Source of the DNA: a virus
Taxonomy: Duplodnaviria > Heunggongvirae > Uroviricota > Caudoviricetes
Strand: one strand, 5' to 3'
DNA length: 36,264 nt
Virus record (IMG/VR): IMGVR_UViG_2778261165_000017
Location: 1-36,264 of that record
A model generated the notes under the pieces. It searched no databases, was not told where the DNA came from, and was given only the letters and a program-made list of their open reading frames with translations. Positions 4,431 to 36,264 of the stretch are shown here, in pieces; position 1 is the first letter of the stretch, and every line of letters begins with the position of its first letter. The position numbers and the translations under genes were made by a program.

Positions 4431-4483
4431 GGGCGGCAGAGCAGTCACGGAGTAAAACTGATACCGCCAAACGCCACCAGAAA
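4431..4483 (-). ncRNA. dicF: DicF small RNA (53 nt) with U-tail at 4426..4430
   Basis: Minus-strand sequence TTTCTGGTGGCGTTTGGCGGTATCAGTTTTACTCCGTGACTGCTCTGCCGCCC followed by TTTTT matches DicF as recalled, with one difference near the 5' end. Confidence 0.75.
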
Positions 4484-5990: not shown

Positions 5991-6175
5991 GCTGACCTCA
6001 TTTCCCCTTAACGCCGGGGTAGCGGAACTAAAAAACTGCTGCGCTGTTATATAAAGTGTTCCCGCCGTCATGTTCATACGCCTCGGGCTGGCTACTTACC
6101 CCCTGACCACTGCTTGGTAACTCGAAGTATTGCCCGGCGTTCTGTGGGGCGGGGTGGGTTGGTGAAATAAGAATG

Positions 6176-6210
6176 CACTTTTAAAGTTATGATGTCAACA
6201 CTTATAAAGT
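6176..6210. promoter_or_regulatory. Left operator-like repeats (CACTTTTAAAGT and ACACTTATAAAGT) with a TTGACA on the minus strand
   Basis: Motifs are reverse-complement relatives of those between repressor and cro; the TTGACA (minus, 6199..6194) would be a -35 for the leftward dicB-type operon. Confidence 0.45.
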
Positions 6211-6273
6211 TAGATTCATGCAATAAAAAACCGCCTCCATGTGAAGCAGTTTTGTGAAAAAAGAGGAAGGGGA

Positions 6274-6555
6274 TTACCTAGGAAATTGGCGTCTGGCGTG
6301 GGCGACGCTCACAATTTCAATACTTGAAGTGGCCACACGGTACAGAATGATATAGTTAGGGTGAGCTACAATCTCGCGCAACCCAGACACTCTGTCGCTT
6401 GATGGGTATAAGTACGGATGTTCGGATAAAGCTAAAACACATGTCTCAATGCGAATTTTTAGTCTACGTGCGGCATGGAGATTTTCTTTTGCAATATAGG
6501 CTACGATCTGACGTAAATCATCACGCGCAGAAGGTAGCCATAAGATGGGCAGCAT
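6274..6555 (-). CDS. ParE/RelE-family toxin (93 aa)
   Basis: Translation MLPILWLPSARDDLRQIVAYI...YRV...IEIVSVAHARR has the typical ParE/RelE fold signature; start overlaps the antitoxin stop. Confidence 0.8.
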   Translation of the reverse strand: MLPILWLPSARDDLRQIVAYIAKENLHAARRLKIRIETCVLALSEHPYLYPSSDRVSGLREIVAHPNYIILYRVATSSIEIVSVAHARRQFPR

Positions 6556-6746
6556 CACACACTCCCGTTAGTCGCAGAAATTTGGGCAATGAGATTTTCT
6601 ATTTCTGCCATTGCCTCATCATGGGGAATTGCAGGGCGCGGATCTGCAAGACTTGCAGCTACTTTTGTACGCAGCCATTCGTTGTAGCTGTTTTCTTGCT
6701 CAATGGTTTCAAATTCAGAAACTATAGGCGAAAGAGCAGTGTTCAT
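6555..6746 (-). CDS. Cognate antitoxin (ParD-like, 63 aa)
   Basis: Small acidic ORF immediately upstream of and overlapping the toxin; GGAG RBS 8 nt upstream; 30 nt downstream of the repressor stop. Confidence 0.7.
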   Translation of the reverse strand: MNTALSPIVSEFETIEQENSYNEWLRTKVAASLADPRPAIPHDEAMAEIENLIAQISATNGSV

Positions 6747-6776
6747 AACATATCTCCGTTTGGCTTATGATGGCGA

Positions 6777-7184
6777 CTACGCTCGGTGCCCTTTCTGGGC
6801 CGCGAGCCATCTTGCAACAGTGCGATCCATTGACTCTTTTTTGTCTTTCATGTCTTTAAGCATTTGTTCCTGATCTTCCTCTGGAAATGCTCCGAATGTT
6901 TGAAGCAGTTCCCTTTGTCTGGGGCCTATTTTCATGGTATCTGGCACCACAACTTGCTCTTCTTCGCTTGGCGGTAACATAAACCAATACGGGGGAAAGC
7001 CCGTTACGTCTGAAAGTTTATCAAGATTAGCAGTCGATGGACTTGTAATGCCATGAACCCACTTTTGGACTGACTGCTGGGCAACACCTATCCTGCGGGC
7101 TAGCTCTGCCTGCTTAAGTCCTGTTTTTTCCAGCACCAATTTTATTCGGTACGTAGTTATTTCAAGGGTGGTCATTCGCTTCAT
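6777..7184 (-). CDS. Prophage repressor, DicA/RacR-like HTH protein (135 aa)
   Basis: N-terminal HTH (LKQAELARRIGVAQQSVQKWVHG); same length and C-terminal pattern as DicA; divergent from the cro-like gene; no S24 peptidase domain; no obvious SD before the ATG. Confidence 0.8.
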   Translation of the reverse strand: MKRMTTLEITTYRIKLVLEKTGLKQAELARRIGVAQQSVQKWVHGITSPSTANLDKLSDVTGFPPYWFMLPPSEEEQVVVPDTMKIGPRQRELLQTFGAFPEEDQEQMLKDMKDKKESMDRTVARWLAAQKGHRA

Positions 7185-7202
7185 GCATTCATTTTACATA
7201 AA

Positions 7203-7264
7203 AAAAGTGTAACTAGCACAATCAGCTTAAAAGTGTTGATAATATAACTTTAAAAGTGTATAAA
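7203..7264. promoter_or_regulatory. Right operator region: three AAAAGTGT-type sites and a rightward promoter (-35 TTGATA 7236..7241, -10 TATAAA 7259..7264)
   Basis: Sites at 7203..7210, 7226..7238 and 7247..7259; the third lies in the 17-bp promoter spacer. Confidence 0.55.
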
Positions 7265-7291
7265 TCATGGCAATTCACGGGAGTTAACAAT

Positions 7292-7558
7292 ATGCATGAA
7301 TGTTTAAAAAAGAAAATTCACAAAAGAGGGTTATCCCAAGCAGGCGTTGCTCGCTTGATTGGATTGCCGCAACAGGTTGTATCTCGATGGGCTAATGGTC
7401 ATCAGGTTCCTGCGTCAAGGGTTCTACAACTGTGTGAGATTATGCAGTGGGAGGTTACTCCTCACGAACTCCGCCCTGATATTTACCCCAATCCAACCGA
7501 CGGCTTGCCTTCTGAGTTTAAGGCTAACACACAACCAGCTGCGGGAGTTGATTCATGA
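7292..7558 (+). CDS. Cro-like HTH regulator (YdaS-type, 88 aa)
   Basis: HTH LSQAGVARLIGLPQQVVSRW; GGGAG RBS 9 nt upstream of ATG 7292; divergent from repressor. Confidence 0.7.
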   Translation: MHECLKKKIHKRGLSQAGVARLIGLPQQVVSRWANGHQVPASRVLQLCEIMQWEVTPHELRPDIYPNPTDGLPSEFKANTQPAAGVDS

Positions 7559-7980
7559 AAATCAAGCATGAACACATCCGCATGGCGATGAATGCCTGGG
7601 CGCATCCGGACGGCGAAAAAGTACCGGCTGCGAAAATTACCAAAGCGTATTTCGAGCTGGGTATGACGTTCCCTGAACTGCATGACGACAGCAAACACAA
7701 CGCGCTTTATCTCAATACCCAGAAAATTTTCCGCTGGGTAGAGAAAGACACCCCTGATGCAGTTGAAAAAATTCAGGCGTTGTTACCAGCGATCGAAAAG
7801 GCAATGCCACCTTTGCTGGTGGCCAGAATGCGCAGCCACAGTTCAGCTTATTTTCGGGAGCTGGTGGAGACGCGGGAGCGACTGGTGAGAGACGCTGATG
7901 ATTTTGTCGCAGTGGCAATCGCCGGTTTCAATCAGATGAACCGTGGTGGCCCGGCAGGAAATTCTGTGGCAGTACATTGA
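7555..7980 (+). CDS. YdaT-like protein (CII-position, 141 aa)
   Basis: Starts MKIKHEHI as YdaT of Rac is recalled to; ATGA overlap with the cro-like gene. Confidence 0.55.
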   Translation: MKIKHEHIRMAMNAWAHPDGEKVPAAKITKAYFELGMTFPELHDDSKHNALYLNTQKIFRWVEKDTPDAVEKIQALLPAIEKAMPPLLVARMRSHSSAYFRELVETRERLVRDADDFVAVAIAGFNQMNRGGPAGNSVAVH

Positions 7981-9138: not shown

Positions 9139-9561
9139 GTGGTAAAAGTTTTTACACAAGAAGAGCGAGAAAAAATTAAAGGGCAGGTTGTTGAGCTAGT
9201 ACGCCGGAGTGGGCGCGAGACGCTACGGCAACTGGAATCCAAGACAGGTGCGACAAGATATCTGATCAGCGTTCTCGCCAGAGAGCTGGTTGCCAGTGGC
9301 GATATATACAACTCTGGTTACGGGTTATTCCCGTCTGAACAGGCGCGTAAGGACTGGCAAAATGCCCGTAAAAAGCTCTCAAGGGCAAAGCTGAAGAAAC
9401 CATCTGCGGTTGATCCGGACCTTATCTGGTCATTACCAGACGGAGAAATACGTCGCTACGACAGGCGTATGAACATAATCTGTCGCGAGTGCCGGAGAAG
9501 TGAAGTTATGCAGCGCGTGCTGGCGTTCTATCAGGGGAATTTTCAGGAGGTGATGCTGTGA
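9139..9561 (+). CDS. Hypothetical protein (140 aa)
   Basis: AAGGAGG RBS 4-5 nt before GTG start; translationally coupled to the next gene. Confidence 0.6.
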   Translation: MVKVFTQEEREKIKGQVVELVRRSGRETLRQLESKTGATRYLISVLARELVASGDIYNSGYGLFPSEQARKDWQNARKKLSRAKLKKPSAVDPDLIWSLPDGEIRRYDRRMNIICRECRRSEVMQRVLAFYQGNFQEVML

Positions 9562-12972: not shown

Positions 12973-13127
12973 TTTTATATTGGCGAGGTGACGGGAGTTA
13001 AGTAGAATTGCTGCGGGTGCTTGAGGCTGTCTGCCTCAGGCATGAACACCAAAAGGCAGATAGAGAAAAGCCCCAGTTAACATTACGCGTCCTGCAAGAC
13101 GCTTAACATTAATCTGAGGCCATATCT

Positions 13128-13340
13128 ATGCTCTACACACGTAGGTTAGCCTCTTACGTGCCGAAAGGCAAGGAGAAGCAGGCTATGAAGCAGCAAAAGG
13201 CGATGCTAATCGCCCTGATCGTCATCTGTTTAACCGTCATAGTGACGGCACTGGTAACGAGGAAAGACCTCTGCGAGGTACGAATCCGAACCGGCCAGAC
13301 GGAGGTCGCTGTCTTCACAGCTTACGAACCTGAGGAGTAA
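13128..13340 (+). CDS. mok: Mok-like in-frame extended reading frame (70 aa)
   Basis: In-frame N-terminal extension of hok, like MokC (69 aa) as recalled. Confidence 0.5.
   Translation: MLYTRRLASYVPKGKEKQAMKQQKAMLIALIVICLTVIVTALVTRKDLCEVRIRTGQTEVAVFTAYEPEE
13185..13340 (+). CDS. hok: Hok/Gef-family type I toxin (51 aa)
   Basis: MKQQKAMLIALIVICLTVIVTALVTRKDLCEVRIRTGQTEVAVFTAYEPEE is near-identical to HokC/Gef as recalled; AAGGAG RBS. Confidence 0.85.
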   Translation: MKQQKAMLIALIVICLTVIVTALVTRKDLCEVRIRTGQTEVAVFTAYEPEE

Positions 13341-14844: not shown

Positions 14845-15210
14845 ATGACTGAACGCATAGAATTTGTTTTGCCTTACCCGCCAACGGTGAACACTTACTG
14901 GCGTCGTCGTGGCAGCACATATTTTGTATCAAAAGCCGGGGAGCGTTATCGCCGGGCAGTGGCGCTTATTGTTCGCCAGCAGCGGCTGAAATTAAGCCTG
15001 TCCGGAAGGCTGGCAATAAAAATTATTGCAGAGCCACCGGATAAGCGCCGCCGCGACCTGGACAATATCCTGAAGGCACCACTGGATGCGCTGACGCATG
15101 CCGGACTTCTCATAGACGACGAGCAGTTTGATGAAATCAATATTGTGCGCGGACTGCCTGTTCCTGGTGGTCGGCTGGGGATAAAAATCACAGAACTGGA
15201 GTGCGCATGA
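14845..15210 (+). CDS. rusA: Holliday junction resolvase RusA (121 aa)
   Basis: Motifs YPPTVNTYW, DKRRRDLDN, GGRLGIKITE align with RusA as recalled. Confidence 0.85.
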   Translation: MTERIEFVLPYPPTVNTYWRRRGSTYFVSKAGERYRRAVALIVRQQRLKLSLSGRLAIKIIAEPPDKRRRDLDNILKAPLDALTHAGLLIDDEQFDEINIVRGLPVPGGRLGIKITELECA

Positions 15211-15896
15211 ATAACCAGTATTTACAGTTTGTGCGTGAGCAGCTCATTATCGCTACCGCTGATTTGAGTGGGGCAACAAAAGGTCAGCTTGAAGCCTGGC
15301 AGGAGAATGCCATGTTTGATACAGGGCGTTACAGGCGTAAAAAAATCCGGTACCGCGATGAAGTGACTGGAAGAATGATAACGCGGGATAGTCCACCGAT
15401 ACCGGGAAAACAATCACTGGCGAAAGGCTCATCAATTGCTCTGGTAAGTCAGGTTGAGTTTTCGACATCATCATGGCGACGGGCAGTTCTGTCTCTTGAA
15501 GAACTTCATAAAGCCTGGTTGTTGTGGTGTTACAGCGGGAGTATTTATTGGGAATATCAGATCGCGATAACACAGTGGGCGTGGAATGAATTTAATGCTC
15601 AATCCGGTACCAGAAAAATTGCAGGGAAAACGCAGGAACGCCTGAAAAAATTAATCTGGCTGGCGGCGCAGGCAGTAAAAGCAGAACTTTTTGGTGGGGA
15701 AGGTTATGAATACCAGGAGCTGGCATTACTGGCGGGAGTGACAACTAAAAACTGGTCAAAAACATTTACTCGTCACTGGGTTGCAATGAAACACATTTTT
15801 CACCGACTGGATAGTGAGGCTTTATTGTTTGTAATGAGAACACGTTCAAAACAAAAGACGGCATTTTCAAAGCAAAGTGTTGCAAAAGTAGATTGA
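15207..15896 (+). CDS. Late-gene antiterminator Q-like protein (229 aa)
   Basis: ATGA overlap with rusA; lies immediately upstream of a strong promoter plus terminator and the lysis cassette; family not sequence-verified. Confidence 0.6.
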   Translation: MNNQYLQFVREQLIIATADLSGATKGQLEAWQENAMFDTGRYRRKKIRYRDEVTGRMITRDSPPIPGKQSLAKGSSIALVSQVEFSTSSWRRAVLSLEELHKAWLLWCYSGSIYWEYQIAITQWAWNEFNAQSGTRKIAGKTQERLKKLIWLAAQAVKAELFGGEGYEYQELALLAGVTTKNWSKTFTRHWVAMKHIFHRLDSEALLFVMRTRSKQKTAFSKQSVAKVD

Positions 15897-16105: not shown

Positions 16106-16181
16106 GGCCCTTTAGCTCAGTGGTGAGAGCGAGCGACTCATAATCGCCAGGTCGCTGGTTCAAATCCAGCAAGGGCCACCA
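16106..16181 (+). tRNA. tRNA with CAT anticodon, Ile2 (lysidine)-like / Met-type
   Basis: Cloverleaf folded by hand; 7-bp acceptor stem GGCCCTT/AAGGGCC; anticodon loop CTCATAA; closely resembles E. coli ileX as recalled; CCA encoded. Confidence 0.85.
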
Positions 16182-16182
16182 A

Positions 16183-16259
16183 CCGCCACTAGCTCATCAG
16201 GAAAGAGCGTCAACCCTTTAAGTTGAGTGTGCGAGGTTCGAGTCCCCGGTGGCGGTCCA
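16183..16259 (+). tRNA. tRNA-like gene with atypical anticodon loop CCTTTAA (anticodon TTT if canonical, C at position 33)
   Basis: Perfect 7-bp acceptor stem CCGCCAC/GTGGCGG, perfect 5-bp anticodon stem, T-loop TTCGAGT with one A-C mismatch in the T stem; CCA encoded. Confidence 0.55.
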
Positions 16260-16261
16260 GT

Positions 16262-16337
<76 letters not shown>

Positions 16338-16340
16338 TAT

Positions 16341-16415
<75 letters not shown>

Positions 16416-32968: not shown

Positions 32969-33513
32969 AAACGGGGGCCGAAGCCATCCGGGCGCTGGCC
33001 ACACAGCTCCCGGCGTTTCGTCAGAAACTGAATGAGGGCTGGTATCAGGTGCGCATTGCCGGGCGTGATGCAGGCGAAAATGAATTATCTGCCCGTCTTA
33101 ATGAGCCGCTGGCAAATGGTGCCGTGATCCACATCGTGCCGCGTCTGGCGGGAGCTAAAAGTGGCGGTGTGTTTCAGGTGGTGCTTGGGGCGGCGCTGAT
33201 TGCGGTGGCATGGTGGAACCCTGTGGGCTGGCTGGGGGCCGCGGCTGTATCGGGCATGTATGCGGCAGGGGCCAGTATGATCCTGGGCGGAGCGGCGCAG
33301 ATGCTGGCACCGAAAGCCAGGACGCCCACGGCAGCCAGTACAGATAACGGCAAACAGAACACCTATTTTTCCTCACTGGATAACATGGTTGCTCAGGGCA
33401 ATGTTTTGCCTGTTCTGTACGGTGAAATGCGTGTGGGGTCGCGGGTGGTTTCTCAGGAGATCAGCACGGCAGACGAAGGGGACGGTGGTCAGGTTGTGGT
33501 GATTGGTCGCTGA
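32866..33513 (+). CDS. I: Tail tip assembly protein I (215 aa)
   Basis: Ends ...MRVGSRVVSQEISTADEGDGGQVVVIGR as lambda I is recalled to; 103-nt overlap with K as in lambda. Confidence 0.85.
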   Translation: MAATHTLPLASPGMARICLYGDLQRFGRRIDLRVKTGAEAIRALATQLPAFRQKLNEGWYQVRIAGRDAGENELSARLNEPLANGAVIHIVPRLAGAKSGGVFQVVLGAALIAVAWWNPVGWLGAAAVSGMYAAGASMILGGAAQMLAPKARTPTAASTDNGKQNTYFSSLDNMVAQGNVLPVLYGEMRVGSRVVSQEISTADEGDGGQVVVIGR

Positions 33514-33534
33514 TGCAAAATGTTTTATGTGAAA

Positions 33535-33552
33535 CCGCCTCCGGGCGGTTTT
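33535..33552 (+). terminator. Hairpin with U-tract between I and J
   Basis: CCGCC-TCCG-GGCGG followed by TTTTGTCGTTT. Confidence 0.45.
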
Positions 33553-33573
33553 GTCGTTTATGGAGCGTGAGGA

Positions 33574-36264
33574 ATGGGTAAAGGCAGCAGTAAGGGGCAT
33601 ACCCCGCGCGAAGCGAAGGACAACCTGAAATCATCCCAGATGCTGAGCGTGATAGACGCCATCAGTGAAGGGCCGATTGAAGGTCCGGTGGACGGATTAA
33701 AAAGTGTGCTGCTGAACAGTACGCCAGTGCTGGACAGTGAGGGGAATACCAATATCTCCGGTGTCACGGTGGTTTTCCGGGCAGGTGAGCAGGAGCAGAC
33801 ACCGCCGGAGGGATTTGAATCCTCCGGCTCCGAGACGGTGCTGGGTACGGAAGTGAAGTGCGACACGCCGATTACCCGGACCATCACGTCTGCAAACATC
33901 GACCGTCTGCGCTTTACCTTCGGTGTGCAGGCACTGGTGGAAACCACCTCAAAGGGGGACCGGAATCCGTCGGAAGTCCGCCTGCTGGTTCAGATACAGC
34001 GTAACGGTGGTTGGGTGACGGAAAAAGACATCACCATTAAAGGCAAAACCACCTCACAGTATCTGGCCTCGGTGGTGGTGGGTAACCTGCCGCCGCGCCC
34101 GTTCAATATACGGATGCGCAGGATGACGCCGGACAGCACCACAGACCAGCTGCAGAACAAAACGCTCTGGTCGTCATACACCGAAATCATCGATGTGAAA
34201 CAGTGCTACCCGAACACGGCACTGGTCGGCGTGCAGGTGGATTCGGAGCAGTTCGGCAGCCAGCAGGTGAGCCGTAATTATCATCTGCGCGGGCGTATTC
34301 TGCAGGTGCCGTCGAATTATAACCCGCAGACGCGGCAATACAGCGGTATCTGGGACGGAACGTTTAAGCCAGCATACAGCAACAACATGGCCTGGTGTCT
34401 GTGGGATATGCTGACCCATCCGCGCTACGGCATGGGGAAACGTCTTGGTGCGGCGGATGTGGATAAATGGGCGCTGTATGTCATCGGCCAGTACTGCGAC
34501 CAGTCAGTGCCGGACGGCTTTGGCGGCACGGAGCCGCGCATTACCTGTAATGCGTACCTGACCACACAGCGCAAGGCGTGGGATGTGCTCAGTGATTTCT
34601 GCTCGGCGATGCGCTGTATGCCGGTATGGAACGGGCAGACGCTGACGTTCGTGCAGGACCGGCCATCGGATAAGGTGTGGACCTATAACCGCAGTAATGT
34701 GGTGATGCCGGATGATGGCGCGCCGTTCCGCTACAGTTTCAGCGCCCTGAAGGACCGTCATAATGCCGTTGAGGTGAACTGGATTGACCCGAATAACGGC
34801 TGGGAGACGGCGACAGAGCTTGTGGAGGATACGCAGGCCATTGTCCGTTACGGTCGTAACGTCACGAAGATGGATGCTTTTGGCTGTACCAGCCGGGGGC
34901 AGGCACACCGCGCCGGGCTGTGGCTGATTAAAACAGAACTGCTGGAAACGCAGACCGTGGACTTCAGCGTGGGCGCAGAAGGGCTTCGCCATGTGCCGGG
35001 CGATGTCATTGAAATCTGTGATGATGACTATGCCGGTATCAGCATCGGCGGTCGTGTGCTGGCGGTGAACAGCCAGACCCGGACGCTGACGCTCGACCGT
35101 GAAATCACGCTGCCATCCTCCGGTACCACGCTGATAAGCCTGGTTGACGGAAGTGGTAATCCGGTCAGCGTGGAGGTTCAGTCCGTCACCGACGGACTTA
35201 AGGTGAAAGTGAACCGGGTTCCTGACGGCGTTGCAGAATACAGTGTGTGGGGGCTGAAGCTGCCGACGTTGCGCCAGCGCCTGTTCCGCTGCGTGAGTAT
35301 CCGTGAGAACGACGACGGCACGTATGCCATCACTGCCGTGCAGCATGTGCCGGAGAAAGAGGCCATCGTGGATAACGGGGCGCACTTTGACGGTGACCAG
35401 AGCGGCACGGTGAATGGTGTCACGCCGCCAGCAGTGCAGCATCTGACCGCCGAAGTCACCGCAGACAGCGGGGAATATCAGGTACTGGCCCGCTGGGACA
35501 CGCCGAAGGTGGTGAAGGGCGTGAGCTTCCTGCTCCGTCTGACCGTAACAGCGGATGACGGCAGTGAGCGGCTGGTCAGCACGGTCCGGACGACGGAAAC
35601 CACATACCGCTTCAGGCAGCTGGCGCTGGGGCGTTACACGCTGACGGTCCGGGCGGCAAATGCCTGGGGGCAGCAGGGTGATCCGGCGTCGGTATCATTC
35701 CGGATTGCGGCACCGGCAGCGCCTGTCACTATTGAACTGATACCAGGGTATTTTCAGATAACAGCGGTCCCGAAACTGGCTGTATATGACCCGACGGTGC
35801 AGTTTGAGTTCTGGTTCTCGGAAAAGCGGATTACCGATATCAGGCAGGTTGAAACCACAGCCCGCTATCTTGGCACGGCGCTGTACTGGATAGCTGCCAG
35901 TAGCAATATTAAGCCGGGTTATGATTATTACTTTTATATCCGCAGCGTGAATACCGTTGGTAAATCGGCATTTGTGGAGGCCGTCGGTCGGGCGAGCGAT
36001 GATGCGGAAGGTTATCTGAATTTTTATAAAGGGTTGATCAATAAAACGCATCTCGGCAAGGAGCTACTGGAAAACTTTGAGCTGACGGAAGATAACGCCA
36101 GCAAACTGGAGCAGTTTTCGAAAGAGTGGAAGGACGCCAACGATAAGTGGAATGCCATGTGGGGCGTCAAAATTGAGCAGACCAAAGACGGCAAACATTA
36201 TGTCGCGGGTATTGGCCTCAGCATGGAGGACACGGAGGAAGGCAAACTGAGCCAGTTCCTGGTT
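33574..36264 (+). CDS. J: Tail tip / host-specificity protein J, 3'-truncated by the window end (first 897 codons)
   Basis: Hand-translated [38 protein letters not shown] matches lambda J; 60-nt I-J gap as in lambda; frame open to the window end. Confidence 0.9.

Follow-up and report, generated by a model that had tools for sequence, protein, structure and literature searches.

Three leftward genes, encoding a short repressor with a helix-turn-helix (HTH) domain, a PaaA2-like antitoxin and a ParE2-like toxin, lie opposite the divergent genes of a YdaS-type Cro analogue and of YdaT in the stretch of DNA analyzed here (36,264 nucleotides, termed the window). Gene content and order, as assigned by Pfam, were found to be the same as in the CP-933P prophage (Sp12) of E. 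coli O157:H7. The features identified at the locus are listed in Table 1.

Table 1. Features of the locus with their positions in the window. Mismatches are counted relative to the OR1 sequence.
Feature	Coordinates	Strand	Remarks
pL-like promoter (predicted)	6170..6198	-	-35 TTGACA 6198..6193, 17-bp spacer, -10 CATTCT 6175..6170; start near 6163
OL1 operator (predicted), GCACTTTTAAAGTTA	6175..6189		In pL spacer, touches -10; 1 mismatch, opposite strand
OL2 operator (predicted), ACACTTATAAAGTTA	6198..6212		Abuts pL -35; 1 mismatch, opposite strand
Intrinsic terminator of repressor-antitoxin-toxin operon	6224..6253	-	Hairpin, then U tract; precedes left sites
ParE2-like toxin gene	6274..6555	-	Pfam ParE_toxin E = 9e-17; 71% identity to CP-933P ParE2; RefSeq RelE/ParE toxin
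PaaA2-like antitoxin gene	6555..6746	-	Pfam PaaA2 E = 7e-21; PDB 3ZBE/5CW7 E = 2e-22
Repressor (CI analogue), 135 aa	6777..7184	-	434-like N-terminal HTH, PaaR2/DicA-type C-terminal domain
pRM-like promoter (predicted)	7191..7219	-	-10 TAAAAT 7196..7191; weak candidate -35 GTGCTA 7219..7214; start at A of ATG 7184
OR3 operator (predicted, weak), ACATAAAAAAAGTGT	7196..7210		In pRM spacer; one good half-site and ACA...TGT ends
OR2 operator (predicted), TCAGCTTAAAAGTGT	7222..7236		Between candidate pRM -35 and pR -35; 3 mismatches
pR-like promoter (predicted)	7236..7264	+	-35 TTGATA 7236-7241, 17 bp, -10 TATAAA 7259-7264; start expected at about 7271; read from sequence
OR1 operator (predicted), TAACTTTAAAAGTGT	7245..7259		In pR spacer; reference copy, 0 mismatches
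Cro analogue (YdaS family HTH protein), 88 aa	7292..7558	+	Pfam YdaS_toxin E = 9e-11, HTH_3; GGAG Shine-Dalgarno 7280-7283
YdaT high-affinity site (predicted), pRE-like element, TTGATTCATGAAAATCAA	7548..7565		Sole perfect TTGATTN6AATCAA in window
YdaT (CII analogue)	7555..7980	+	Pfam YdaT_toxin; PDB 3C4R E = 1e-84, 8BT1 E = 1e-75; PHROG CII-like activator

A 15-bp imperfect palindrome, ACACTTTwAAAGTTA, occurs in three copies on the right, one of them weaker, and in two inverted copies on the left. In the first-pass annotation, three such repeats had been placed between repressor and cro and another pair about 1 kb to the left, and all of these were found at those positions. The search for all copies that it had proposed was run with TAACTTTAAAAGTGT, allowing at most three mismatches, and gave four matches in 36 kb against 0.79 expected; four or more matches were reached in one of 100 shuffles. 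All four fall within the two short non-coding stretches that border the repressor operon. The two stretches also share an inverted repeat of 35 nt (6173-6207 and 7227-7261, 86% complementary, 30/35 matches); in 2000 Markov simulations of matched composition, the number of matches never rose above 26. The match between left and right sites thus exceeds chance.

The sites are dyad-symmetric and stand in tandem with a phasing of 23-26 bp, as is characteristic of operators bound by Cro/C1-type proteins, and binding to them is predicted. OL1 and OL2 are direct repeats spaced by 23 bp, OR2 lies 23 bp from OR1, and OR3 lies 26 bp from OR2. OR3 has the sequence ACACAAAAAAAGTGT in relatives L048-L052, which is a better palindrome. 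The distance between OL and OR is about 1.07 kb. A third OL site was considered beside OL2 at 6221-6235 but rejected, as it matched at only about 5 of 14 positions and overlapped the tail of the terminator. The number of recognisable OL sites is two, compared to the three reported for CP-933P.

The presence of an operator in the spacer of a rightward promoter, as previously annotated, was confirmed for the predicted pR. The pL-like promoter around the left sites mirrors pR, so that the left and right sites are found in mirror-image promoter contexts, and the segment conserved across immunity types starts at about 6163. In eight distinct relatives of the same immunity, the -35 hexamer of pL was invariant and its -10 hexamer kept the pattern CATNNT. 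Among relatives, both hexamers of pR had one variable column each, with the final -10 position (usually T) being the one that varied, and the -10 hexamer of pRM was invariant. A strict scan for the sigma-70 consensus called neither pR, pL nor pRM. pR was not listed because its second hexamer ends in A and not in T, and the strict rules of the promoter and terminator scanner explain why none of the three promoters, nor the operon terminator, was found by it. Promoters and terminator were read manually, with the use of conservation and folding. An alternative register for pR and pL was considered, with an 18-bp spacer and the sequences TGn-ATAAAT and TGn-ATTCTT, respectively.

The center of OR2 is located near -45 relative to the predicted start of pRM. 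In lambda OR2 is located at about -42. The slightly more upstream position of the OR2 described here makes activation of pRM uncertain. Downstream of pL we found ydfA, dicF, dicB, and recE, which make up the early-left operon, and DicF is placed as in the Qin prophage. The conserved leader of pL (6070-6163) was found to be no more structured than shuffled sequences on folding (z = +1.05), which gives no indication of a nut-like or riboregulatory element in this leader.

The repressor matched the Pfam families HTH_3 and HTH_26 (Cro/C1-type) above their cut-offs. Its significant Pfam matches were to HTH families only, with no Peptidase_S24 at E ≤ 0.01, and the earlier statement that it lacks an S24 domain therefore holds. 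The protein thereby differs from self-cleaving repressors of the lambda CI/LexA kind, whose S24 domain has a Ser/Lys dyad and an Ala-Gly cleavage site; the HTH domain is followed by only some 65 residues, which are homologous to the C-terminus of PaaR2 and DicA. The best match in the PDB was the 434 repressor (residues 12-68, E = 7e-4, a weak match), with alignment of the Gln-Gln start of the recognition helix (QQ motif); it was also the only one, and no PaaR2-like entry was retrieved. The C-terminal 55 amino acids are 51% identical to PaaR2 (E = 2e-17). The N-terminal domain gave no significant match to PaaR2 residues 1-68, and results on binding of PaaR2 to DNA can therefore be transferred by analogy only. 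Homology to DicA extends along the entire protein (29% identity, E = 3e-15). A multiple alignment with PaaR2, DicA and the repressors of four other types revealed a conserved C-terminal block, LELLxxFxAxPE...KKESM...ARWxAAQK. The protein thus has the build of the short repressors of the PaaR2/DicA class, i.e., about 120-136 aa, an N-terminal HTH domain, a conserved C-terminal domain, and no S24 domain. More speculatively, the PaaR2-type oligomerisation domain may be a portable module that occurs with no fewer than three mutually unrelated types of DNA-binding domain, which are 434-like, PaaR2-like, and lambda/P22-like.

Upstream of the repressor gene, TAAAAT (7196..7191, minus strand) is followed by six nucleotides and the ATG at 7184, with no GGAG-like sequence in between. 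This is as the first-pass annotation had it, and the transcript is predicted to be leaderless, beginning with the A of this ATG. In RefSeq, the identical gene begins at an in-frame ATG at 7175, nine nucleotides downstream, which gives a protein of 132 aa. The layout of a -10 hexamer, six nucleotides and ATG is common to CP-933P (GATAAT-TACCAC-ATG) and to the O103 type (TAAAAT-TGAATA-ATG), while the L053 type has seven nucleotides. For PaaR2, 5' RACE together with N-terminal sequencing proved that the start is leaderless (PMC8630535).

The paaA2-parE2 pair lies within the interval of about 1 kb between the two sets of sites and is co-oriented with the repressor gene, which lies directly upstream of it. 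The antitoxin is 65% identical overall to PaaA2 of CP-933P. The hairpin of the operon terminator has a minimum free energy of -12.7 kcal/mol (z = -4.1 relative to shuffles) and was retained in seven variants despite changes in the sequence of the stem, as judged by folding each sequence. A simple terminator scanner did not call it. On the other side of the repressor, the Cro analogue was assigned to the transcriptional repressors in PHROG and matched the Cro protein in PDB 3BD1. YdaT is 82% identical to YdaT of CP-933P. In CP-933P, footprinting placed YdaT on the inverted repeat TTGATTN6AATCAA, which there too lies where ydaS and ydaT adjoin (PMC9986795), and primers for CP-933P carry the identical site sequence at that position. 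The paaA2-parE2 pair, the operon terminator, the pL promoter around the left sites, and the YdaT site as mark of a pRE-like element come in addition to the elements of the first-pass annotation.

The nucleotide differences between same-immunity relatives were not evenly distributed. In non-coding DNA, 12 of 75 operator columns varied, compared to 72 of 142 columns outside the operators (Fisher p = 4e-7). Essentially only the central base of OR1 varied (A or T), OL1 was kept except for its central bases, OL2 was kept, and OR2 had an invariant right half-site and a variable left half. Where the repressor of a relative has another DNA-binding domain, both sets, left and right, were found to be swapped together for a different palindrome. 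Each of four further immunity types carries a palindrome of its own at OR and again at OL, namely ACAATwAAAAACTGT in O103 RM8385, ACACAAAAAAyGTGT in L053/L057, a TTTAGT-type sequence in CP-933P and a TGTTAG-type sequence in Qin with DicA. Such co-varying pairs of repressor and operator provide material for studying the evolution of DNA-binding specificity in 434-like HTH domains.

The similarity between the left and right ends might simply reflect common ancestry or a duplication of pL and pR, with no protein-binding site in common. The 35-nt inverted repeat does span the -35 hexamers of both promoters, as would be expected from a promoter duplication. However, conservation between relatives is highest in the half-sites of the palindromes, which stand upstream of the -35 hexamer as well as in the spacer, while the three bases that separate the -35 hexamer from the site are free to vary. 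pL and pR also have different -10 hexamers (CATTCT and TATAAA), and heteroimmune relatives retain TTGAyA as -35 box and yet exchange the palindromes at both ends along with the repressor's DNA-binding domain. As the dyad symmetry and the 23-bp phasing are furthermore typical of operators that bind dimers, we find a duplication without shared binding sites hardly credible. Another view would be that the three leftward genes form a self-contained three-component toxin-antitoxin system, the repeats serving only for autoregulation of the operon, and that lysogeny is controlled elsewhere or not at all. The paaR2-paaA2-parE2 genes were indeed first described as a three-component toxin-antitoxin system that stabilises plasmids (PMC8630535), and a scan of genome contigs for PaaA2 gave, among the matches listed, only distant and apparently stand-alone toxin-antitoxin loci in many bacteria (Bartonella, Pseudomonas, and others), which did not lend themselves to a comparison of operators. 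Against this, the left sites are placed past the operon terminator, and the promoter that contains them points toward ydfA-dicF-dicB-recE and away from the toxin-antitoxin genes, a placement that autoregulation does not explain. The strongest of the right-hand sites is in the spacer of the cro/ydaS promoter and not in the promoter of the toxin-antitoxin genes, and PaaR2 primarily represses ydaS-ydaT and PL in CP-933P (PMC8630535). The homologous repressor DicA is without an adjacent toxin-antitoxin pair, and so, apparently, are those of the Gifsy prophages. A role limited to the toxin-antitoxin operon is therefore very improbable.

Altogether, positions 6163-7980 very likely represent the immunity region of a lambdoid prophage of E. 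coli that resembles Rac, Qin, and CP-933P, and they appear to encode a bistable switch of the CI/Cro type belonging to the PaaR2/DicA class. We infer the function of the present variant from homology and sequence conservation. The bipartite, lambda-like switch proposed in the first-pass annotation is supported in that every element has an experimentally characterised counterpart in the immunity region of CP-933P (PMC8630535). The conservation of the operators in same-immunity relatives and their joint replacement in others add to this support.

The 135-aa repressor would bind the 15-bp operators (ACACT-N5-AGTTA) as an oligomer through its 434-like HTH domain. Occupation of OR1 and OR2 would shut off pR and with it the genes for the Cro analogue YdaS, the CII analogue YdaT, and replication, while occupation of OL1 and OL2 would shut off pL and the early-left operon. 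The weak pRM-like promoter would give rise to a leaderless mRNA for the repressor and for paaA2-parE2, which hold the position of rexAB, and this mRNA would end at the hairpin terminator before OL. Competition for these operators is expected from the Cro analogue, and YdaT bound at TTGATTCATGAAAATCAA may drive establishment transcription in the leftward direction. Bridging of OL and OR by the PaaR2-type C-terminal domain is conceivable, since PaaR2 forms octamers. RecA-triggered self-cleavage would not take place, as the repressor is without an S24 domain.

The terminase, portal, head, tail, lysis, and Q genes of the prophage are of full length, and this points to an element that is still inducible. 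No perfect LexA box (CTGT-N8-ACAG) was present in the 36-kb window, and matches with one mismatch were at chance level. Neither a DinI homologue nor a recognisable antirepressor was found among the proteins scanned, including those from the open reading frames at 9.1-13.8 kb and at the right end of the window. Within the window, the replication genes are thus not followed by a LexA-controlled dinI-antirepressor operon of the Gifsy type; such an element could lie outside the window or act in trans. Induction might be brought about as in Gifsy, by a small LexA-controlled antirepressor that binds the repressor and whose gene would lie either beyond the immunity region or in another prophage. The repressors of Gifsy-1 and Gifsy-2 are the closest ones in deposited phage genomes (32.5% identity over 83% of the length); Gifsy repressors have 136 aa, undergo no cleavage, and lose their activity through antirepressors under the control of LexA, which can act in trans (PMC3121763). 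In addition to the lack of SOS elements in the window, it argues against this proposal that PaaR2 was stated, with reference to earlier work, not to react to mitomycin C and that switching of reporter states depended on stationary phase in the CP-933P study (PMC8630535). With an inducible prophage suggested by its gene content, we regard a Gifsy-like antirepressor as a tentative possibility. We consider it doubtful, and rather unlikely, that an apparently complete and probably inducible prophage would combine a non-cleavable repressor with no SOS input in the element, so that induction would not proceed via RecA/LexA acting on this phage. If this were true, the trigger could be stochastic or stationary-phase bistability of repressor and Cro, the gyrase toxin ParE2 with its labile antitoxin acting as trigger or enforcer, or an antirepressor from a co-resident prophage.

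With its clearly readable 15-bp operator, the region extends the PaaR2/DicA class by one more immunity specificity. The full-length structural and lysis genes, unlike those of the cryptic CP-933P, make the prophage a convenient natural system for the questions left by CP-933P. These include how a CI analogue without self-cleavage is inactivated, whether OL and OR loop over about 1 kb, and what the ParE2 toxin-antitoxin system contributes to the stability of the immunity region.

As in lambda, pRM and pR are divergent and accompanied by three phased operators, and a second set of operators is located in pL beyond accessory genes, which are rexAB in lambda and paaA2-parE2 here. A leaderless repressor mRNA and establishment control of the CII type, both predicted here, would also be common to the two. 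The repressor differs from that of lambda by the absence of the self-cleaving S24 domain, and the CII analogue is the POU-like YdaT, which belongs to another fold family. The distance between OL and OR is roughly 2.4 kb in lambda, and unlike in lambda no N/nut system was identified in the present region. The operators described here, like those of the sister immunity types, begin and end as ACA...TGT and are A/T-rich in the center, and in this they resemble the operators of phage 434, which are ACAA-N6-TTGT. They are, however, 15 bp and not 14 bp in length, and the C-terminal domain of the repressor is unrelated to the S24 domain of the 434 repressor. Gifsy-1, -2, and -3 have short (136 aa) homologous repressors that are likewise non-cleavable (PMC3121763), but the dinI-antirepressor operon and the LexA box have no equivalent in the window. 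For Qin of E. coli K-12 the resemblance includes a DicA protein of also 135 aa, the divergent cro-like gene dicC, and a leftward operon controlled by DicA with ydfA, ydfB, ydfC, dicF, and dicB, as downstream of pL here; related palindromes are found upstream of ydfA as well as between dicC and dicA. Qin differs in that there is no toxin-antitoxin pair between dicA and the ydfA promoter, in its type of operator and in that no YdaT-type CII analogue is annotated beside dicC in K-12.

In CP-933P the genes paaR2-paaA2-parE2 and ydaS-ydaT have the same order and orientation. The CI analogue PaaR2 is translated from a leaderless mRNA, has no peptidase domain, and is co-transcribed with paaA2-parE2 opposite YdaS (Cro) and YdaT (CII); OR, OL, PL, and PRE are present, with an operator inside the pR spacer (PMC8630535). 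Footprints of PaaR2 and YdaS were obtained on the intergenic region; both proteins repress PR and PL, with bistability as the outcome, and YdaT activates PRE (PMC8630535). Both prophages have operators in the divergent promoter region between repressor and cro and again in the PL promoter beyond the toxin-antitoxin genes, and their YdaT sites are identical. The N-terminal DNA-binding domains of the repressors are unrelated in sequence, the one here being HTH_3/434-like, the Cro analogues share only about 28% identity, and the operators are of the GTTTAGTAA type in CP-933P (PMC8630535), compared to ACACTTTwAAAGTTA here. The region reveals no new mechanism and is not a new kind of system; it is a new heteroimmune specificity variant of the published PaaR2/DicA-type switch.

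The first-pass annotation had proposed operator-like repeats at both ends of the immunity region, and a motif search located them. With three or fewer mismatches allowed, the 15-mer TAACTTTAAAAGTGT occurs four times in the 36 kb searched (0.79 expected by chance), and all four copies lie within two short non-coding stretches flanking the repressor operon. A further, weaker copy (ACATAAAAAAAGTGT) retains one good half-site and the ACA...TGT ends. The proposed operators OL1 and OL2 are spaced by 23 bp, as are OR1 and OR2, and OR2 and OR3 by 26 bp. An inverted repeat of 35 nt, matching at 30/35 positions, is common to the left and right regions; none of 2000 simulations with the local AT-rich composition gave more than 26.

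The rightward promoter pR was present as described, with both hexamers, the 17-bp spacer and OR1 in their claimed places. The proposed leftward promoter pL mirrors pR, with OL1 within its spacer and OL2 abutting its -35. Sequence shared by all immunity types begins again at the predicted pL start (about 6163). The pL transcript has a G-rich leader (6146-6163, leftward to about 6078) that is conserved in at least three immunity types, up to the exact start of the immunity-specific segment; folding of this leader revealed no unusual RNA structure (z = +1.05). Downstream of pL are a DUF1391/ydfA-like gene, DicF and an exonuclease gene (all on the minus strand); the placement of DicF resembles that in the dicB operon of the Qin prophage.

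Features of the immunity region and the prophage
Feature	Position	Strand	Remarks
DicF antisense sRNA	4431-4482	-	Rfam 76 bits (gathering score 48); early-left operon
pL	TTGACA 6198..6193, CATTCT 6175..6170	-	17-bp spacer
OL1, OL2	6175-6189, 6198-6212	opposite to OR1, OR2	TAACTTTAAAAGTGT matches
Terminator	6224-6253		hairpin and U tract; minimum free energy -12.7 kcal/mol, z = -4.1
ParE toxin gene	6274-6555	-	between repressor gene and left sites
PaaA2 antitoxin gene	6555-6746	-	between repressor gene and left sites
Repressor gene	6777-7184	-	135 aa
OR3	7196-7210		weak copy
OR1, OR2	7245-7259, 7222-7236	one strand	TAACTTTAAAAGTGT matches
pR	TTGATA 7236-7241, TATAAA 7259-7264	+	17-bp spacer
cro-like gene	7292-7558	+	YdaS family; GGAG Shine-Dalgarno sequence
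TTGATTN6AATCAA	7548-7565		cro-like/YdaT gene junction; only perfect match in window
YdaT gene	7555-7980	+	follows cro-like gene
Ren-like exclusion protein gene	9139-9561	+	PHROG 142, E = 8e-47; directly 3' of replication initiator gene
hok/sok locus	13015-13340	+	type I toxin-antitoxin; sok RNA 118 bits (Rfam)
70-aa ORF in hok/sok	13128-13340	+	Pfam HOK_GEF match
Q antiterminator gene	15201-15896
Four tandem tRNA genes	16106-16412	+	between Q antiterminator and holin genes

On the minus strand 6 nt separate TAAAAT (7196..7191) from the repressor ATG at 7184, and there is no Shine-Dalgarno sequence, in agreement with the first-pass annotation. Because this layout is also found in CP-933P, a cryptic prophage of E. 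coli O157:H7, and in the O103 type (7 nt in the L053 type, another compared locus), it supports a leaderless repressor transcript starting at this ATG. RefSeq/PGAP places the start 9 nt downstream, at a second in-frame ATG (132 aa, MTTLE...; window 7175-7184, minus strand; 1878-2276 of compared locus L070), which would imply a 9-nt leader lacking a Shine-Dalgarno sequence. Judged from the promoter layout, the first ATG is the more likely start.

Relatives with a repressor 90-100% identical were collected from IMG/VR and RefSeq and aligned, giving 10 distinct OR and 8 distinct OL regions. Variable columns made up 12/75 in the operators compared to 72/142 in other non-coding positions (Fisher p = 4e-7). 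OR1 and OL1 keep constant half-sites around a central base that switches from A to T or back, the three bases separating the -35 from OR1 vary freely, and in one lineage OR3 is the better palindrome ACACAAAAAAAGTGT. Where the DNA-binding domain is diverged or different, the relatives have another palindrome at both the OR and OL positions: in E. coli O103 RM8385 (repressor 65% identical) it is ACAATwAAAAACTGT, in L053/L057 (74% identical) ACACAAAAAAyGTGT, and CP-933P and Qin have TTTAGT-type and TGTTAG-type repeats, respectively. Replacement of both site sets in concert with the repressor recognition domain is what is predicted for operators, and since both sets change together with this domain, we read the repeats as putative operators. 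Plain promoter duplication would not give such a concerted replacement.

At its N-terminus the repressor has an HTH_3 domain; among solved structures the 434 repressor is the best relative of this domain, and the Gln-Gln motif of the recognition helix aligns between the two. The entire protein is a homologue of DicA of Qin (E = 3e-15) and of the 136-aa repressors of Gifsy-1 and Gifsy-2. With PaaR2 of CP-933P it shares only the C-terminal 55 residues (51% identity, E = 2e-17). Loci L061-L068 (IMG/VR, about 2417-2917) encode a 166-aa repressor with a lambda/P22-like N-terminal HTH region and a PaaR2-type C-terminal domain; the oligomerisation domain therefore appears to behave as a portable module. 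A simple screen of these loci found no OL/OR-type inverted repeat. HTH families are the only Pfam matches of the repressor, which bears out the reported lack of an S24 domain, and RecA-stimulated self-cleavage, already doubted, is ruled out because of this domain content. Homology makes a Gifsy-style LexA-controlled antirepressor a plausible inducer, but the window has no LexA box, and neither a DinI homologue nor a recognisable antirepressor turned up among its proteins that were scanned.

The first ~45 residues of PaaA2 are ~90% identical to CP-933P PaaA2 (6555-6746 compared to 2893-3084 of L003, the CP-933P-type locus), the final ~19 are wholly unlike it; in ParE2 the differences are concentrated in the N-terminal half. 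Co-divergence of a toxin-antitoxin interface may explain this pattern. The terminator hairpin is kept in seven variants despite substitutions in the stem.

The window covers part of a lambdoid prophage of E. coli. Chromosomes of several chicken E. coli isolates are 100% identical over the 1.5 kb around the switch, and at least 80% of this 1.5 kb is present in only 17 of 5426 complete genomes; deposited phage genomes match the flanks only. Besides the tabulated genes there are genes for an excisionase, a RecE-like exonuclease, a replication initiator, holin, endolysin, large terminase, portal, major head protein and tape measure, and judged from gene content the prophage looks complete. The hok/sok locus is its second addiction-type module. 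Beyond the tail genes, seven minus-strand ORFs (56-312 aa, 33155-36194) had no PHROG match at E ≤ 1e-5; this block may be cargo, a moron region or host DNA past the prophage end.

A CI/Cro-type switch is the best-supported model for the immunity region, whose anatomy, homology and conservation were observed directly. By analogy to CP-933P, from which we infer operator binding, transcript starts and looping, repressor oligomers at OR1 and OR2 would block pR and those at OL1 and OL2 would block pL. A weak pRM (candidate -35 GTGCTA) would give a leaderless repressor-paaA2-parE2 mRNA ending before OL. The Cro analogue would compete with the repressor for the same sites, YdaT would drive establishment transcription, and the repressor may use its C-terminal domain to bridge OL and OR across ~1.07 kb.

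The architecture matches the experimentally dissected immunity region of CP-933P (PMC8630535), with identities of 82% for YdaT, 71% for ParE2 and 65% for PaaA2. There, the transcript of the CI analogue PaaR2 starts at the A of the ATG (5' RACE, N-terminal sequencing and mass spectrometry), the 97-bp intergenic region is footprinted by PaaR2 and YdaS, and both proteins act as repressors of PR, of PRM and of a PL promoter on the far side of parE2 (PMC8630535). Low PaaR2 levels activate PRM, YdaT activates PRE and the locus is bistable; PaaR2 forms octamers, has no peptidase motif and is said not to respond to mitomycin C (PMC8630535). CP-933P YdaT has been footprinted on TTGATTN6AATCAA, its high-affinity site. 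This kind of switch is already described, and the first-pass annotation had arrived at its main features independently, from sequence alone. What appears new is its presence in a complete-looking prophage, an immunity specificity that would reside in the operator sequence together with the repressor and Cro DNA-binding domains, and the joining of a PaaR2-type C-terminal domain to several unrelated DNA-binding domains.
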